Below, in pieces: positions 1 through 14,375 of a stretch of 18,596 bases of DNA. Source of the stretch: a virus (Duplodnaviria; Heunggongvirae; Uroviricota; Caudoviricetes). The stretch lies in IMG/VR virus record IMGVR_UViG_2703718820_000014; one strand, written 5' to 3'. The notes under the pieces are model-generated. The model was not told the origin of the DNA, made no database searches, and saw only the letters and a program-made list of their open reading frames with translations. Each line of letters begins with the position of its first letter. The stretch's first letter is position 1. Position numbers and translations under genes: made by a program.

Positions 1-378
1 GGCACCGCCCGGTGTCACCGTACTGCGACGCGCCAGCTGCTTAATACGCGGGTCCGGACGGTCATATGTCTCCGGCAGCGGAAGGCCTTCACCATACGAC
101 ATGCCGTTTGACTGCCCTGCCAGAACCACAACAAAGTAATACTCCGGGTCGCTGGTGGCGCTGATTACTGTGCCTTCTCCATCCGACGGCTTCACCACCA
201 CAGGTGTGCTCACATCACCTTCTGCGACAATCGCCTGAATAAGTGCTGAGCCATCATCCGTATACGAAGAAAACGGCCCGCCGTATGGCTGCCATCCTTC
301 ACGAATTTTTTGAGCAAGCGCATCCGCAAGGTCTGACGGCGACGCCGCCCTGACCACGTCATAGTGTTTAAATGCCAT
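1..378 (-). CDS. Sialate O-acetylesterase NanS-p-like (DUF1737 N-terminus plus SGNH/DUF303 esterase), 5' portion only; CDS continues past window start
   Basis: Hand translation of the - strand from ATG at 378 gives MAFKHYDVVRAASPSDLADALAQKIREGWQPYGGPF...FVVVLAGQSNGMSYGEG with no stop down to position 1. AGGAGG lies 5 nt upstream of the ATG. The GQSN motif is typical of the 9-O-acetylesterase family encoded downstream of Q in Stx-type phages. Confidence 0.6.
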   Translation of the reverse strand, partial: MAFKHYDVVRAASPSDLADALAQKIREGWQPYGGPFSSYTDDGSALIQAIVAEGDVSTPVVVKPSDGEGTVISATSDPEYYFVVVLAGQSNGMSYGEGLPLPETYDRPDPRIKQLARRSTVTPGGA

Positions 379-575
379 GAATCCTCCTGGCCGGGATAAT
401 GTTGTGAGTCAGATAAGGGGCGGGCTGAAGTCCGGAAGTTACAGGACAATGACAGAAGGAAGACTACAGCCCGCAATACGAAAAAGGCCGCGCAGTTGCG
501 CAGAGTGATTACTGTCGGGTATTATTCGCCAGCTGAAAAATTGATTACTTCACGTTTTGTTGTTTATTCCTTGCT

Positions 576-604
576 GCCCGCGTCTCCCGGCGCGGGCTTT
601 TTTT
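576..604 (+). terminator. Candidate rho-independent terminator (GC hairpin gcccgcg/cgcgggc followed by T7)
   Basis: Stem 576-582 pairs with 591-597, followed by seven T at 598-604. Confidence 0.4.
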
Positions 605-610
605 GCATGT

Positions 611-635
611 AAAAAGGCTCCTGCGATGAGGAGCC
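611..635 (-). terminator. Candidate rho-independent terminator on - strand (ggctcct/aggagcc hairpin, T5 on - strand)
   Basis: Perfect 7-bp stem 616-622 with 629-635 and a 6-nt loop; the A5 run at 611-615 is the T-run on the - strand. Lies downstream of the methyltransferase gene. Confidence 0.4.
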
Positions 636-892
636 TGGATATATGCCTAATCTCTGTATACAGCATGATGCCGGGTGCCTCCCGGTGAATTCTGCAATGA
701 CCAGACAGAATCCGCAACTTGCCTATACAATACGCAACCAAACATCTGTCATTATGCCCCTCCGCTCAGGGGGATTCACCATGCCTGTTCCTTTTAACAA
801 ACGCCCCGCAAAACAGACAACTGTCAACCGTCTGAATTGTGAGACATTTAAAATTTTCGGGGCGTAACTGATACCCGGTTAATTCTGCAATA

Positions 893-1951
893 TCATCCGT
901 TCTGACTGACTAAATCCTGAACTTCCCTGACAGTCTGCTCAAAACGTTCAGTCTCCAGCTCAACGCCAGTTGCACGACGTCCCAGCGCCATCGCTGCTTT
1001 GACTGTCGAACCCGACCCCATGAAGAAATCTGCAACCAGGTCACCCGGACGACTGCTCGCGCTGATTATCTGCTGCAGCATTTCTGCTGGTTTTTCGCAC
1101 GGATGTTTCCCGGGATAGTACTGCACCGGTTTATGCGTCCACACATCGGTGTACGGCACCTGCGCCGTCACGCCAAAATACCGCCGCAGATACTTATATT
1201 CACTCTGCAGTTCCGCATACTGCCGGTTCAGTTCACTGTATGTGCTGACCAGTTGGTGATGTGGCTTTTCCAGTTCTCCGCGCTGATGCTTCTCTTCTGC
1301 CACCCGGGCAAACAGCGCCTGTAATTTCAGATAATCGCTTTCGTCCGGTAGCTGCCACTGGCTGGCACTGAACCAGTGCGACACCATGTTTTTCTTTCCT
1401 GTGGCATCAGCAATCTGTTTTGCCGTTATCCCCAGGGCAGCACGTGCATCACGAAAGTAAGAAATCAGCGGGGCCATCACATGCTGTTTCAGTGCCCTGC
1501 CCTTCGCCTCATACCCGGCATCTTTCGGGCGATACGGCCCCTGATAATGTTCCGCGAACAGAATGCGCTCTGTGGCGGGGAAATACGCCCGCAGGCTTTC
1601 CTTGTTGCACCCGTTCCAGCGTCCGGACGGCTTCGCCCAGATAATATGGTTCAGCACACTGAAGCGTTCACGCATCATGATTTCAATGTCAGATGCCAGG
1701 CGATGGCCACAGAACAGGTAAAGACTTCCGGCAGGTTTCAGCACCCGCCAGAACTGCGCAAGACACTGGTCCAGCCACTTCAGGTAATCATCGTCGCCCT
1801 TCCACTGGTTATCCCAACCCTCAGGCTTCACTTTAAAGTACGGCGGGTCCGTGACTATCAGGTCAACAGAATTTTCGGGTAACGACCGGATAAATTCCAG
1901 GCAGTCGGCGTTGATTAACTCACAACTGGATATTTTTACAGTGTTAAGCAT
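893..1951 (-). CDS. DNA methyltransferase, N6-adenine/N4-cytosine type (PF01555-like, beta class), orphan
   Basis: 352-aa ORF with ATG at 1951. DPPY motif (motif IV) near the N-terminus in VTDPPYF and an AdoMet motif I-like FFMGSGST near the C-terminus. No adjacent restriction endonuclease ORF. Confidence 0.85.
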   Translation of the reverse strand: MLNTVKISSCELINADCLEFIRSLPENSVDLIVTDPPYFKVKPEGWDNQWKGDDDYLKWLDQCLAQFWRVLKPAGSLYLFCGHRLASDIEIMMRERFSVLNHIIWAKPSGRWNGCNKESLRAYFPATERILFAEHYQGPYRPKDAGYEAKGRALKQHVMAPLISYFRDARAALGITAKQIADATGKKNMVSHWFSASQWQLPDESDYLKLQALFARVAEEKHQRGELEKPHHQLVSTYSELNRQYAELQSEYKYLRRYFGVTAQVPYTDVWTHKPVQYYPGKHPCEKPAEMLQQIISASSRPGDLVADFFMGSGSTVKAAMALGRRATGVELETERFEQTVREVQDLVSQNG

Positions 1952-2090
1952 GGATCATTAAGCCTGTCTCTGATAGGCTCATTCTGCTTTTGCGCAAAGC
2001 AGTGGGCCTGAGGTTTGCTTGTGATCCAGACGCATGAGCAGATGGCTGGTGAGTGCCCCTAACACCCACCAGCCGCCCATTTACCACAAA

Positions 2091-2113
2091 TAAAAAAGCC
2101 TTCATGACTGAAG
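2091..2113 (-). terminator. Weak candidate terminator overlapping the stop codon of the small upstream gene
   Basis: 5-bp stem cttca/tgaag at 2100-2104 and 2109-2113; the A6 run at 2092-2097 is a T-run on the - strand. Confidence 0.3.
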
Positions 2114-2299
2114 ACGTCTGTAACAACCGAACTGATAGTCTGCCAGACCCGCCATAACAAGCTGGGTCAGTATTAACTGACAGCGTTCGCGTGAAAGGTA
2201 CGTATTCTGTGCAATCTCCCCGACTGTCGCCGGTTCGGTGACGCTTAATTCATTAAACACCACTCTGGCGGTTTCTGTCATATCCTGCTGTTTCAGCAT
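2102..2299 (-). CDS. Small hypothetical protein (about 65 aa), possible winged-helix fold
   Basis: ATG at 2299 is preceded by GGGGA about 9 nt upstream. The longer GTG-start version beginning at 2422 abuts the T-run of the terminator and has no SD, so it is disfavoured. Confidence 0.4.
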   Translation of the reverse strand: MLKQQDMTETARVVFNELSVTEPATVGEIAQNTYLSRERCQLILTQLVMAGLADYQFGCYRRLQS

Positions 2300-2422
2300 G
2301 TCTTTTCCCCTTTTCCGGTTAACGTGACACACCAATAACTCTTGTCGAAAAAGCCAGCAAGCTGAAAGAACGGTATTAATAACCACCAGCGAATTTATTG
2401 CGCTGCTGTATATTACGGACAC

Positions 2423-2443
2423 AAAAAAACCACCTTCCGGTGG
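2423..2443 (-). terminator. tR'-like intrinsic terminator downstream of the Q-like gene
   Basis: Hairpin ccacc-ttcc-ggtgg at 2430-2443 followed on the - strand by T7 (A7 at 2423-2429 on + strand). About 75 bp downstream of the Q-like stop, as expected for the short pR' transcript of lambdoid phages. Confidence 0.5.
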
Positions 2444-2515
2444 CTTCCTTGTGCGAAAAAACTTGCGTTTCGCCTCGCGATACAGCCTTGCGAAGCTTAT
2501 ACGGATTGAAGCAGT

Positions 2516-3088
2516 TTATTGATCAGTTTGCAACATTTTTTTCTCTGTAACAAAAGCCATACGCATGGGGGCATGTAACATAAATTCAGATATCCCCAAC
2601 CACTGATCAATTCGGCGTCTGCACGTAACCAACGTCCACTCAGGATGATCTGCATTTAACCTTTCGGCCATTTTCAGTTTGCTCATTCCTCGTCCTTCGT
2701 ACCTTTGCCGGAGAATATTGATTAGCCCGGGATATTCCCCAAGCACCTCACTGATAACGCGATCAATAATCAACGCCTCTGTGTCTGTACAATGTGACAA
2801 CCAGCTCTTCTGCTTCCCTCTGGTCATATCCCGAAAAAATGCCTCAAGTTCCGGTTTATCCAGCCCGGATTTCTTCATTCTGCGTAAAACTTCATTAACT
2901 GCTGTTTTCGTCAGCTTTTTCGAAACCAGTAACCGGTTAAACATATTTCCGGATTTACCCCCACCGATATACGACCACCGCCCCCACATCCGTAATTTCC
3001 CCTGGATCCAGACTGCTTCCAGCGTGTTCAGGCGTAAATGTTCGCCGCTTTTGCCTGTAATTTCCGGATATATCATATTTACGCTCAC
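2516..3088 (-). CDS. Putative late-gene antiterminator Q-like protein
   Basis: 190-aa ORF directly downstream of rusA with a GTGA start/stop overlap (alternative ATG at 3076), followed by a terminator hairpin. Assignment rests on position; there is no similarity to lambda Q itself, so the family is uncertain. Confidence 0.5.
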   Translation of the reverse strand: MSVNMIYPEITGKSGEHLRLNTLEAVWIQGKLRMWGRWSYIGGGKSGNMFNRLLVSKKLTKTAVNEVLRRMKKSGLDKPELEAFFRDMTRGKQKSWLSHCTDTEALIIDRVISEVLGEYPGLINILRQRYEGRGMSKLKMAERLNADHPEWTLVTCRRRIDQWLGISEFMLHAPMRMAFVTEKKMLQTDQ

Positions 3089-3450
3089 TCACTCTCAATT
3101 TTGTAAATCTTCACACCCAGCCGACCACCAAGAACAAGCTGACCACGTACAATATTGATTTCATCAAACTGCTCGTCATCAATGAGCACTCCCGCATGCG
3201 TCAGCGCATCCAGCGGTGCTTTCAGAATGTTGTCCAGGTCACGACGACGCTTATCCGGTGGCTCTGCAATAATTTTTATTGCCAGCCGTCCGGACAGGCT
3301 TAATTTCAGCCGCTGCTGGCGAACAATAAGCGCCACTGCCCGGCGATAGCGCTTTCCCTCCTCCGATATAAAATATGTGCTGCCACGGCGTCGCCAGTAA
3401 GTGTTCACCGTCGGCGGGTAAGGCAAAACAAATTCTATGCGCTCGGTCAT
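3085..3450 (-). CDS. rusA: Holliday junction resolvase RusA
   Basis: 121-aa ORF; the motif DKRRRDLDNILKAPLDALTHAGVLIDD matches the RusA catalytic region as recalled. ATG at 3450 immediately follows the upstream stop. Confidence 0.9.
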   Translation of the reverse strand: MTERIEFVLPYPPTVNTYWRRRGSTYFISEEGKRYRRAVALIVRQQRLKLSLSGRLAIKIIAEPPDKRRRDLDNILKAPLDALTHAGVLIDDEQFDEINIVRGQLVLGGRLGVKIYKIESE

Positions 3451-4861: not shown

Positions 4862-4889
4862 TTGTCGTCAACAGGCAGCGTGCTATCAT
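4862..4889 (+). promoter_or_regulatory. Candidate sigma70 promoter for the parDE-like module
   Basis: TTGTCG at 4862-4867, 16-nt spacer, TATCAT at 4884-4889, about 35 nt upstream of the ParD-like ATG. Confidence 0.35.
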
Positions 4890-4924
4890 CGAATAGTGTT
4901 CTATCCTACTCCGTGAGGTTTACC

Positions 4925-5182
4925 ATGCGTACAACCCAACAATTCAGCATTACATTAACTAACGAGATGGCTGACATGGTGCGCGCCCGTGTGGCTTCCG
5001 GTGCCTATGCTTCAGAAAGCGAGGTCATTCGTGAAGGGCTTCGCGCACTGAATGAGCGCGATAAAGCAATCGAAGCGTGGTTAACGCATTCAGCCGCCCC
5101 CTCTCTTGATTCTATCCGCGAAAACCCAAACAACGGACGCTCCATTTCACAGGTTCGCGCCGCGATTCGATCCGGGAAGTAA
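4925..5182 (+). CDS. parD: ParD-like antitoxin (ribbon-helix-helix, COG3609-type)
   Basis: 85 aa from ATG 4925 with GAGGT upstream. The sequence ITLTNEMADMVRARVASGAYASESEVIREGLRAL is typical of ParD antitoxins; it is followed 5 nt later by a ParE-like ORF. Confidence 0.8.
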   Translation: MRTTQQFSITLTNEMADMVRARVASGAYASESEVIREGLRALNERDKAIEAWLTHSAAPSLDSIRENPNNGRSISQVRAAIRSGK

Positions 5183-5187
5183 TCTGC

Positions 5188-5487
5188 ATGACATATGAAG
5201 TCATCATTACTCCTGAGGCCGAACAACAAATAATCAACCTGCACAGATATATAACGGAGAAAGCAGGGAACGTCATTGCTGACAATTATGCCAATGCGCT
5301 TCTTGATTATCTTGATGGGTTTTCTACATTCCCGCATCGGGGCAATAAACGCGATGATATTCGCCAGGGGATGCGGGTAACTCATTTCCGCCACAGAACG
5401 ATTATTGCTTTTGCCGTTGATGGCAGAAAAGTCTTTATTGTCGGTATCTATCATGGTGGGCAAAGTTATGAAACCGATTTCTTATAA
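5188..5487 (+). CDS. parE: ParE/RelE-family toxin
   Basis: 99-aa ORF tightly linked downstream of the ParD-like gene, with the size and gene order of a type II ParDE pair. Confidence 0.8.
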   Translation: MTYEVIITPEAEQQIINLHRYITEKAGNVIADNYANALLDYLDGFSTFPHRGNKRDDIRQGMRVTHFRHRTIIAFAVDGRKVFIVGIYHGGQSYETDFL

Positions 5488-13520: not shown

Positions 13521-14375
13521 ATGTTGAATGTAGCTATTGAAAACCAGAACGGGTGGAATTATAGTGCACCTGCACCTCATAAAACGGGTGCCGGGCGTGG
13601 AAACCCGATGATGATCAACGCGCATAACCGCGCTCAGGCGGTTTTTTTATGCGTCAAGCACAGCCACATTCAAATTATGGTGGGGCGTGCAGGGCAGCTG
13701 CAAGGCTGGCCGGCTCCGTTGGTCACCGGTATTTCCACCCCTGTACGTCTCACCACCTTTATGGTCGTGGAAAACCTCGGTGGTGAGTTATTTAAACTGA
13801 TCAACGAGGCTGCCATCATGGCTACTACCCTTACCCTTTCTCACCCTGACGTAACCATCGAAAATGGTCGCGCAGTCACCACGTCTGTTGCAGTTGCAGA
13901 GTTCTTCCACAAACTGCATAAAAACGTCATTCAAAAAATTGAAGCTCTGGAATGTTCCGACGAATTCACTGAGCTTAATTTTCAGCCCAGCGAATACACC
14001 GACACAACCGGGCGCAAACTCCCTATGTACCAAATCACCAAAAACGGCTTCGTTTTCCTGGTGATGGGCTTCACCGGCAAAAAAGCCGCTGCATTTAAAG
14101 AAGCCTACATCGCTGAGTTCGATCGCATGGAGAAAGAACTGCGCCAGAATAACGCCCCGTCTCCCGACAAAATGATTCACGGGGACGGACGTACCCTGGT
14201 TATCCGTCTCGACGAACACGGCAATATCAAATTCACTGAAACCGTTCCGGACGGCGCAATGGTCTGCACCCTGGATACCTTCCAGTTTTATCTGGAGAAA
14301 CAAGGCTGGACTCTTGTAAACCGGAGCGCAATTAAAAATATGACTGTGGAGCAATTACTAAAAATTCATTGTTGA
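13521..14375 (+). CDS. Rha-family phage regulatory protein (Rha domain starts near Met at 13818; 99 upstream codons are open in frame)
   Basis: The region MATTLTLSHPDVTIENGRAVTTSVAVAEFFHKLHKNVIQKIEAL...FVFLVMGFTGKKAAAFKEAYIAEFDRME is typical of the Rha N-terminal domain. ATG 13521 has a modest SD; ATG 13818 has GAGG 8 nt upstream. Confidence 0.7.
   Translation: MLNVAIENQNGWNYSAPAPHKTGAGRGNPMMINAHNRAQAVFLCVKHSHIQIMVGRAGQLQGWPAPLVTGISTPVRLTTFMVVENLGGELFKLINEAAIMATTLTLSHPDVTIENGRAVTTSVAVAEFFHKLHKNVIQKIEALECSDEFTELNFQPSEYTDTTGRKLPMYQITKNGFVFLVMGFTGKKAAAFKEAYIAEFDRMEKELRQNNAPSPDKMIHGDGRTLVIRLDEHGNIKFTETVPDGAMVCTLDTFQFYLEKQGWTLVNRSAIKNMTVEQLLKIHC

Follow-up and report, generated by a model that had tools for sequence, protein, structure and literature searches.

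The 18,596-nucleotide stretch of viral DNA analyzed here (IMG/VR record IMGVR_UViG_2703718820_000014; Caudoviricetes), which we refer to as the window, covers the first segment of the late operon and the early half of a lambdoid prophage. Between positions 2299 and 893 it carries, entirely on the minus strand, a module that consists of a 65-amino-acid (aa) open reading frame (ORF), a structured leader RNA of about 135 nucleotides (nt), and the gene for a 352-aa DNA methyltransferase (Table 1). Taken as a whole, our data are best explained by assuming that this gene is a late-operon orthologue of the sequence-non-specific methyltransferase M.EcoGII, an enzyme in commercial use, whose synthesis would be silenced in the lysogen, depend on the late-gene antiterminator Q, be controlled by the leader RNA, and protect the phage DNA; we estimate the probability of this combined reading at roughly three in four. 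The enzyme itself is already known, and the window gene is one more copy of a well-studied methyltransferase. It is the leader RNA that appears to be new, with the cassette for the 65-aa winged-helix-like protein next in interest, to a lesser degree. An earlier interpretation made from the DNA letters (the sequence-only reading) had described a methyltransferase gene, a 65-aa protein and two hairpins (2045-2073 and 1984-2002) between 893 and 2299, and we recovered all four on the minus strand (ORFs 1951→893 and 2299→2102; hairpins 2044-2074 and 1984-2002); its functional guess was right in outline and was already established for the orthologue.

The motif order from which the methyltransferase had been assigned to the beta class of N6/N4 amino-methyltransferases is indeed present, as DPPY (residues 35-38) precedes FFMGSGST (residues 309-316), and the protein matches PF01555 (N6_N4_Mtase) with 150.5 bits (E 9e-44) at a curated cut-off of 26.7. 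Its ORF is uninterrupted and can be aligned end to end with M.EcoGII; 332 of 349 residues (95%) are identical to a reference sequence that was machine-read from the supplement of PMC11551740, a few reading errors accounting for some of the mismatches. The alignment contains two single-residue gaps, both outside the target-recognition residues 160-237, and it is this full-length similarity, including the central domain for target recognition (about residues 160-237), that makes the protein a member of the M.EcoGII type. Across both genes, the window DNA is 96.6% identical to phage 1720a-02, which has been named as the bearer of a gene very similar to that for M.EcoGII (PMC5778455), and the 65-aa protein is 100% identical in this phage. 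The window methyltransferase is 89% identical to the phiP27 enzyme, it matches the PADLOC model MTase_II with an E value of 1.5e-163, and, when compared with five enzymes to which it is 63-82% identical, it retains all columns in which these do not vary, those of DPPY and FxGxG included. Judged by its sequence, the protein is thus orthologous to M.EcoGII, which methylates adenine at N6 irrespective of sequence.

M.EcoGII and M.EcoGI from E. coli O104:H4 C227-11 (Murray et al., 2018; PMC5778455) possess the same DPPY motif, central helical target-recognition domain and FxGxG motif as the window enzyme; M.EcoGII is likewise borne by a prophage without a restriction partner and shares phage 1720a-02 as a close relative. 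The two enzymes differ in length (352 vs 349 aa), in the C-terminal tail (…DLVSQNG in the window protein) and at about 15 substituted positions, and the enzyme studied here is known from its sequence, whereas M.EcoGII has been characterized biochemically: it methylates adenine in any context in DNA, modifies RNA and DNA:RNA hybrids as well, and blocked all twelve restriction enzymes tested (PMC5778455). A further relative, p25 of Serratia phage OS31, which is 67% identical to the phiP27 enzyme, was shown by experiment to confer relaxed, context-free N6-methyladenine (PMC7556043). On the basis of these orthology relationships, the window enzyme is predicted to methylate adenine in any context, with no sequence motif as its target; the comparison with enzymes of known specificity that the sequence-only reading had proposed is answered in this way at the level of prediction. 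The designation of the gene as an orphan proved justified. Its neighbors are Q, the 65-aa gene, STnc100 and nanS-p instead of the adjacent cognate endonuclease of a type II restriction-modification system, and no restriction-type nuclease was found among these neighbors or the 14 window ORFs that we scanned, which include ten of the larger ones.

The complete genome closest to the window is that of E. coli FHI_NMBU_10 (NZ_CP046539; 97.1% identity over 3.1 kb). The fact that the gene is annotated as a frameshifted pseudogene in this genome, and is represented by relics in other phages, might suggest that the window copy is nothing but a decaying, non-functional passenger in a defective prophage. 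We regard this as barely credible, as the window ORF is full-length, keeps every invariant column including DPPY and FxGxG, encodes a protein 95% identical to an enzyme with proven activity, and is preceded by a leader that is intact at 123.7 bits when scored with our covariance model R1.

The two hairpins noted in the sequence-only reading correspond to inverted repeats at 2044-2055/2063-2074 (12 nt, 92% complementary) and 1984-1990/1996-2002 (7 nt, 100% complementary). They are not stand-alone features but belong, as P2 and P4, to a single conserved leader RNA with five helices, the last of which, P5, is followed by GAUCC and then by the AUG start codon of the methyltransferase gene at 1951-1949. 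A 201-nt stretch that encompasses the leader (2130→1930) folds with a z-score of -4.86 relative to shuffled sequences. Among six phages, the leader is better conserved than either of the flanking proteins, the small proteins being 44-97% and the methyltransferases 63-82% identical. Collectively, the conservation and the covariation of both hairpins in relatives of the window indicate that they are more than chance products.

A search of viral contigs with the methyltransferase protein returned only relatives at 95-99% identity, which are useless for the analysis of covariation; for this purpose we used a collection with one genome per species that was scanned with the methyltransferase profile and yielded 80 loci, from Escherichia to Shewanella. 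RNAalifold, when run on a plain MAFFT alignment, returned P1, 7 of the 12 pairs of P2, and three isolated pairs in P3 and P4. As its performance was hampered by register shifts, the structure was drawn by hand and then checked by pair counts and a covariance model. In the plain MAFFT alignment (64 sequences), 82.4% of the cells are paired (32-42% in slid controls), double-sided changes are found at 20 of 41 pairs (9-13 in slid controls), and the covariation score is 0.136 (at most 0.092 in slid controls). None of 500 shuffled alignments reached the covariation score, the pairing or the double changes, and 11 of 500 reached the count of further pair types; owing to the common descent of the sequences, a comparison with the slid controls is fairer. 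The alignment produced with the covariance model (65 sequences), which is fitted to the structure and leans toward it for this reason, gave 85.6% paired cells, double-sided changes at 26 of 41 pairs, a score of 0.184 (at most 0.081 in slid controls), and no shuffle out of 500 that reached this score, the pairing or the double changes. Individual compensatory changes are readily seen: in P2, GGCUGG/CCAGCC is replaced by GACAGU/GCUGUC in Proteus; in P1, UGGGC/GCCCA is replaced by UGAGC/GCUCA in Mixta and by UGGGG/CCCCA in Gilliamella; and the third pair of P3 occurs as C-G, U-A and A-U. More than 100 G-U cells in the fitted alignment place the structure on the sense strand of the messenger RNA.

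These data also bear on the question whether the 135-nt stretch might act as DNA, either as a site to which the winged-helix protein or a different regulator binds, as a promoter, or as a recombination junction between modules. Long invariant runs (AAUGGGCGGCUGG, GGCCCA and GAUCUAUG) would suit the binding of a protein, a winged-helix DNA-binding protein is encoded alongside, and module boundaries are often conserved in mosaic phages. However, the helices stay paired through the double-sided changes in P1 and P2, and the abundant G-U pairs would turn into A-C on the other strand. Furthermore, the element is present in at least 23 loci without a winged-helix gene, and it keeps a constant distance from the start codon but not from any upstream gene. 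A function at the DNA level is consequently very improbable. Two further ideas found no support: a leader peptide that would begin at an invariant AUG in P1 has a frame of 3-42 codons that is open in 7 sequences, single-base insertions and deletions being common, and a pseudoknot in which the P2 loop (UUGGU) would pair with the junction (ACCAA) is not borne out by inspection by eye, as the loop is variable and the junction fixed.

The leader is tied exclusively to this methyltransferase family. In a search with a profile of the spacer, almost all loci from Enterobacterales and Morganellaceae had the leader in register with the start codon, and four Vibrio loci had it in a diverged form. A degenerate pattern of P1, P2 and the junction has 121 instances in IMG/VR, and in 119 of these a methyltransferase gene starts 51-53 nt after P1, the other two being located at contig ends. 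The covariance model recognizes the leader in N15, in VHML and in a Gilliamella locus as well, and it detects leader-like sequences between Q and the holin gene of lambda and HK022 (Table 1), which retain P2, P3, GGUCAC and CUAUCA, have lost P1, and look like relics left after the loss of the methyltransferase module. No leader was found by the model in phage phiO18P, where the enzyme is encoded between holin and endolysin. A partial second copy of the 5' half of the leader (1526-1584 in locus L093; nhmmer E 4e-5) is present in Trabulsiella odontotermitis, about 800 nt upstream of the full copy. Rfam contains no match to the leader at the gathering score, and under permissive filters the matches were at chance level, the best being P26 with 17 bits and an E value of 0.6. 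We found no description of the leader in the literature that we searched, and the published work on M.EcoGII describes neither an upstream leader RNA nor a 65-aa neighbor (PMC5778455).

With respect to its architecture, the leader resembles riboswitches and protein-binding 5' leaders, as well as the put RNA of HK022, in that it has multiple helices, an invariant junction and covarying stems and is located next to a start codon in a phage transcript. It differs from them in that it lacks an Rfam match, and in HK022 our model finds only the weak relic between Q and the holin gene; the put antitermination RNA was rejected as a homologue, because the model misses the put regions.

How might such a leader act? 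The 3' arm of P5 ends 5 nt before the AUG, which lacks a usable Shine-Dalgarno sequence. In 38 of 64 leaders a Shine-Dalgarno-like core or trinucleotide is missing at -16 to -4; the remaining ones have a weak AAGG or AGG within this arm. Of the 64 leaders, 57 have a GATC sequence (Dam site) 1-4 nt ahead of the start codon (window 1952-1956); it could function as DNA, through Dam or SeqA, or it could be part of the ribosome-binding region. In the Vibrio loci (L149, ~2328-2438; L150, ~2340-2465; L151; L163), an ORF for a 36-42-aa protein with the pattern CxxC…CxxC is inserted between the leader and the methyltransferase gene, which is itself preceded there by a strong GGAGG Shine-Dalgarno sequence. 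The product of this ORF matches the zinc ribbon of Mu Com (PF10122) with at best 24.6 bits at a cut-off of 22.9. Translation of the harmful mom gene of phage Mu is activated by Com, the classic example of such an activator, and the Com-like ORF of the Vibrio loci thus independently ties the methyltransferase family to translational control. The likeness to com-mom extends to the principle that a harmful DNA-modification gene expressed late in the lytic programme is, or in our case would be, restrained after transcription. It ends where Mom is not a methyltransferase, where the window lacks a Com ORF (found only in the Vibrio relatives L149-L151 and L163), and where the leader precedes the first ORF and bears no likeness to the short hairpin at the mom translation initiation site.

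We therefore favor the view that the leader serves as a translational gate, as a cis-acting element that would limit or time translation through the binding of a protein, perhaps the RNA-binding enzyme itself in the sense of autogenous repression or the winged-helix protein, or through the binding of a small ligand. In its most specific form, this proposal states that the leader is an undescribed class of cis-regulatory RNA dedicated to genes of the M.EcoGII family, either a riboswitch for S-adenosylmethionine or S-adenosylhomocysteine or an operator (autogenous or for the winged-helix protein), which gates the translation of a harmful enzyme, is located upstream of stx2 and in one late transcription unit with it in many Stx phages, and persists as a relic ahead of the holin gene in lambda. 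We offer this specific form tentatively and give it a little less than an even chance. The regulation of M.EcoGII-type enzymes matters more than the enzymes themselves, as they are harmful when unregulated. Beyond the silence of the prophage gene, we came across no publication that explains their restraint by phages, and a conserved, covarying leader tied exclusively to this family provides a concrete and testable handle on this restraint.

The position of the module is also relevant to its proposed control. Its genes follow Q in the late region, with terminators upstream. The hairpin and U-tract at 2450-2423 are conserved after Q in relatives, according to an alignment of diverse loci, and we infer that they represent tR'. 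Since homology to Stx2 phages with a different Q starts only at ~2397, the segment 2398-2515 travels with Q. The late promoter pR' would be expected between 2451 and 2515. The stop codon of the 65-aa ORF falls within another hairpin that resembles a terminator. Using loose scan criteria, a hairpin with a U-rich tail was found at most 62 nt upstream of the leader in 48 of 66 loci; in ~40 of the 66, a short GC-rich hairpin has its U-rich tract 4-14 nt (mostly 5-9 nt) before the leader. Given this number and the Providencia/Proteus group, we dropped the idea that the leader always follows a terminator as a defining feature. The same order of Q, terminator, small ORF, spacer of ~150 nt, methyltransferase gene and lysis genes is present in mEp460, SfV, Hafnia phage yong2 and Providencia phage 117lys. 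The terminator after Q is annotated in SfV, where a further one is annotated after the methyltransferase gene, and it can be recognized as a conserved hairpin with a U-tract in mEp460, yong2 and 117lys. N15 has an annotated promoter and terminator directly before the leader, and the true start of its gene 52 lies 136 nt later.

These features lend themselves to the following regulatory model. The gene for M.EcoGII is not expressed in the lysogen, clones that express it constitutively grow slowly and are unstable, and an anti-restriction role upon induction has been proposed for its product (PMC5778455); silence and induction of the window gene are deduced from this orthologue. In the lysogen, transcripts from the late promoter would stop at 2450-2423, and any read-through would be stopped again at 2115-2088; termination at both sites would, as we propose, keep the harmful enzyme from being made. 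Upon induction, Q-modified RNA polymerase would pass both terminators and transcribe the winged-helix ORF, the 135-nt leader, the methyltransferase gene, STnc100, nanS-p and the lysis genes. The enzyme would then methylate the adenines of the replicating phage DNA in any context, and the DNA of the progeny should thereby be protected in the next host from most adenine-sensitive restriction systems.

Several points weigh against this model or narrow it. Both the methylation and the expression state of the window gene are read from its orthologues, and errors in the machine-read M.EcoGII reference may have shifted the identity figure by 1-2%. RefSeq marks the methyltransferase gene of FHI_NMBU_10 (L002 3894-4942) as a frameshifted pseudogene, with the leader and the small ORF kept, and its function is consequently dispensable in some prophages. 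No sigma-70-like site on the minus strand passed our consensus scan of 2300-2515, and inspection by hand yielded weak candidates only (TTGCAA-N17-TTCAAT at 2532-2504), so that pR' was not pinpointed. The U-tract of the second terminator is imperfect in many relatives, and the hairpin is absent from the Providencia/Proteus group; double termination is hence not universal. With regard to the leader, the shuffle controls overstate significance because the aligned sequences share descent. By itself, RNAalifold recovers only P1 and P2, and the interior of P3 is non-canonical in most sequences; P3 to P5, which depend on the hand-drawn structure, are for this reason less secure. Finally, a binding partner of the leader and its action on translation are parts of our proposal.

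The loss of the gene also helps to judge whether the methyltransferase might chiefly serve phage development or host takeover, with bulk methylation of DNA and RNA shutting down host gene expression, timing packaging or regulating late genes. Dam methylation by phage P1 serves pac cleavage in this manner. Such a role would be in keeping with the fact that in mEp460, SfV and N15 the methyltransferase gene opens the late genes and immediately precedes the lysis cassette, with the Dam site next to the start codon in most leaders, and with the modification of RNA and DNA:RNA hybrids by M.EcoGII and the harm it does to the cell (PMC5778455). Yet many viable phages have no such gene or only a 50-aa remnant of it, among them those of the 933W type (PMC10462455) and apparently also lambda and HK022, and it is frameshifted in the genome nearest to the window. 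An essential developmental role is thus unlikely, and we consider phage development or host takeover a quite unlikely main purpose. Protection of phage DNA by the M.EcoGII orthologue remains our preferred reading. It has parallels in the Dam enzymes of T2/T4 and P1 and in the alpha-class M.HaeV group of relaxed specificity, which are also phage-encoded, lack a restriction enzyme, and have been proposed to serve self-protection; these enzymes are of the alpha class or recognize GATC-type or short motifs and reside in other gene contexts, whereas the family represented in the window is of the beta class and fully non-specific.

The 65-aa ORF upstream of the leader starts in all likelihood at the ATG at 2299, as indicated by the N-terminus MLKQ.DMT that is conserved in homologues and by an AAGGGG Shine-Dalgarno sequence. 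The maximal ORF, which would begin at a GTG at 2422 and encode 106 aa, is not the conserved form of the protein and was set aside; in many database entries the ORF begins at an upstream GTG and is lengthened to 94-106 aa, and its product is labeled a lipoprotein in some. The protein belongs to phrog_331 (E 1e-37), a family of unknown function. Searches for a protein family yielded nothing in NCBIfam or PADLOC and only a sub-threshold TrmB match (E 0.0024) in Pfam. The AlphaFold2 model (pLDDT 78) has three helices followed by a beta hairpin (H-H-H-beta-beta), and its best Foldseek matches are winged-helix domains of the MarR, IclR and Rrf2 types, with TM scores of 0.7-0.78. The suggestion that the protein is winged-helix-like is in this way supported by the modeled fold, which is that of a stand-alone winged-helix protein; it probably acts as a regulator. 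The gene directly precedes the methyltransferase gene in 39 of the 80 genome loci and in 4 phage loci, 43 in total, and where it is missing, the leader is directly preceded by Q and its terminator or by unrelated genes. Upstream of the ORF, a promoter-like element with the consensus TTGCTG-N17-TAT(T/C)(G/T)G, followed by a conserved TGTRTGTCA, has a fixed spacing and a spacer of variable sequence in 17 diverse loci; it matches sigma-70 at three of six positions in each hexamer, was missed by the consensus scan, and may act as a promoter. Together with the terminator-like hairpin at its end and its presence in some loci and absence from others, the gene looks like an optional, self-contained accessory cassette, possibly of the kind known from morons, the promoter-like element being the part with a weak consensus match.

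Could the small protein and the methyltransferase then form a controller/enzyme pair, in which the former times transcription from 2360-2332 independently of Q? The arrangement recalls the C proteins, small DNA-binding proteins that are encoded just upstream of modification genes, and the conservation of the promoter-like element across phages with different Q families, the position of the small gene directly upstream in 43 loci, and the analogous winged-helix-like ORFs upstream in Vibrio loci, which are longer and contain a similar …EQLxxAG… helix, fit this idea. In contrast, C proteins are Xre-type helix-turn-helix proteins that act on C-boxes and time a restriction enzyme, while the gene studied here is optional, encodes a winged helix of the MarR/IclR type without a PADLOC match, and has no restriction gene beside it. 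Many loci (e.g., L090 and N15) have the leader and the methyltransferase gene straight after Q and its terminator without a winged-helix gene; furthermore, the small ORF and the methyltransferase gene are in most cases set apart by a hairpin that resembles a terminator, and the promoter-like element is a poor sigma-70 match. We therefore regard control by such a pair as unlikely and retain the Q-dependent, leader-controlled expression of the methyltransferase as our favored reading.

The sequence-only reading had assumed that the module fills the slot between Q and nanS in which Stx phages carry their toxin genes. This is incorrect. Phages of the Stx2a, Stx2b, Stx2c and Stx2d types carry the 65-aa gene and the methyltransferase gene between Q and the tRNA-stx2 cassette, and this cassette lies between the methyltransferase gene and STnc100. 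In the Stx2a phage LC567838, for instance, the order is Q, 65-aa ORF, methyltransferase gene, three tRNA genes, stx2A, stx2B, STnc100 and nanS. Non-toxigenic E. coli prophages with the same frame have tRNA genes alone or a gene of the TerB family in the position of the cassette. The variable cargo slot hence starts after the methyltransferase gene and not after Q; in the window it corresponds to 814-892 and is empty, and no tRNA gene was found anywhere in the window. The methyltransferase is consequently not an alternative to the toxin. Homology of the window to Stx2 phages extends from ~880 to ~2397 and includes the methyltransferase gene, its upstream region and the small ORF, with Q and the stretch after it excluded. 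Of 5426 complete E. coli genomes, 431 (~8%) contain at least 80% of window 1-3100, the module is found in lambdoid, N15-like and VHML-like phages, and according to a survey published in 2023, some Stx2a phages encode a 352-aa methylase downstream of Q and the others, including those of the 933W type, a 50-aa relic (PMC10462455). The module is thus an old and widely shared part of the leader region of the late operon and not a recently acquired cargo.

Accordingly, the description of the module as an anti-restriction or epigenetic moron expressed with the late genes needs to be divided. Its position in the late region and the anti-restriction role, as proposed for M.EcoGII (PMC5778455), agree with our reading; an epigenetic role in the lysogen, where the orthologue is silent, and the status as recent cargo do not. 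The corrected map moves the cargo slot of the moron region to the far side of the methyltransferase gene. It also places the leader and the methyltransferase gene between the late promoter and stx2 in many Stx2 phages. [quoted passage not shown]

Table 1. Features of the methyltransferase module, its surroundings in the window, and leader matches in other phages and loci
Feature	Source	Position	Strand	Basis
DUF968/HNH protein	Window	4509→3451	-	Profile match
RusA	Window	3450→3085	-	Profile match
Late-gene antiterminator Q, 190 aa	Window	3088→2516	-	PF06576 DUF1133, 345 bits; PF06530 Phage_antitermQ, 33.5 bits; phrog_753, anti-termination protein Q-like
Intrinsic terminator ~70-95 nt after the Q stop codon, GCCACCGGAAGGTGG then U7	Window	2450-2423	-	Read in the sequence; same hairpin flagged on plus strand
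Promoter-like element upstream of the winged-helix ORF	Window	TTGCTG 2360-2355; 17-nt variable spacer; TATTGG 2337-2332	-	Alignment
65-aa winged-helix ORF	Window	2299→2102	-	phrog_331; fold model
Terminator-like hairpin that overlaps the winged-helix ORF's stop codon, GUCUUCAGUCAUGAAGGC then UUUUUUAUUU	Window	2115-2088	-	Terminator scan
Structured methyltransferase leader RNA, ~135 nt	Window	2089→1952	-	Covariance model R1, 123.7 bits
P1 (UGGGC/GCCCA), encloses P2 and P3	Window	2079-2075/2007-2003	-	Hand-drawn structure
P2, the larger of the two hairpins	Window	2074-2063/2055-2044	-	Hand-drawn structure
P3, between P2 and the 3' arm of P1	Window	2042-2033/2023-2014	-	Hand-drawn structure
P4, the second hairpin	Window	2002-1996/1990-1984	-	Hand-drawn structure
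P5, 3' arm ending 5 nt before the AUG	Window	1983-1975/1965-1957	-	Hand-drawn structure
Beta-class methyltransferase, 352 aa	Window	1951→893	-	PF01555, 150.5 bits
Empty cargo junction, ~80 nt	Window	892→814	-	Comparison with Stx2 phages
STnc100-family prophage small RNA	Window	813→605	-	Rfam RF02076, 168 bits (gathering score 47), full model length 1-206
Terminator of the STnc100 small RNA	Window	636→615 and U-tract	-	Terminator scan
nanS-p-like esterase, N-terminus, runs off the window	Window	378→1	-	PF08410 DUF1737, E 3.6e-12; RefSeq neighbor annotated as DUF6645 or SASA esterase
Leader	N15			Covariance model, 46 bits
Leader	VHML			Covariance model, 39 bits
Leader	Gilliamella locus			Covariance model, 32 bits
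Leader-like, between Q and holin gene	Lambda	45017-45152		Covariance model, 21.8 bits, E 3e-4
Leader-like, between Q and holin gene	HK022	37098-37210		Covariance model, 19.2 bits

Downstream of the module, a strong terminator on the plus strand (576-597; GCCCGCGUCUCCCGGCGCGGGC then U7) faces the STnc100 small RNA. It suggests a convergent small transcript opposite STnc100, in an arrangement that resembles the pairs of prophage small RNAs and anti-small RNAs reported by Tree et al. (2014; PMC4104026). No match to the anti-small RNAs AgvB and AsxR was found in window 380-900. The remainder of the window encodes a ParDE pair, Ead/Ea22, replication proteins, YdaT, Rha/Ash, a RecE-like exonuclease and an integrase. 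Two Rfam RNAs, isrK (65.7 bits, 13572-13648) and the C4 antisense RNA (73.5 bits, 13673-13760), have matches on the plus strand, at the 5' end of and within an ORF (13521-14375) with Ash and Rha domains, an arrangement of the type found in RNA control of prophage immunity or anti-repressor synthesis. The ParD-like antitoxin (106 aa) and the ParE toxin (99 aa) are encoded at 4862-5487 on the plus strand, opposite to the surrounding phage genes.

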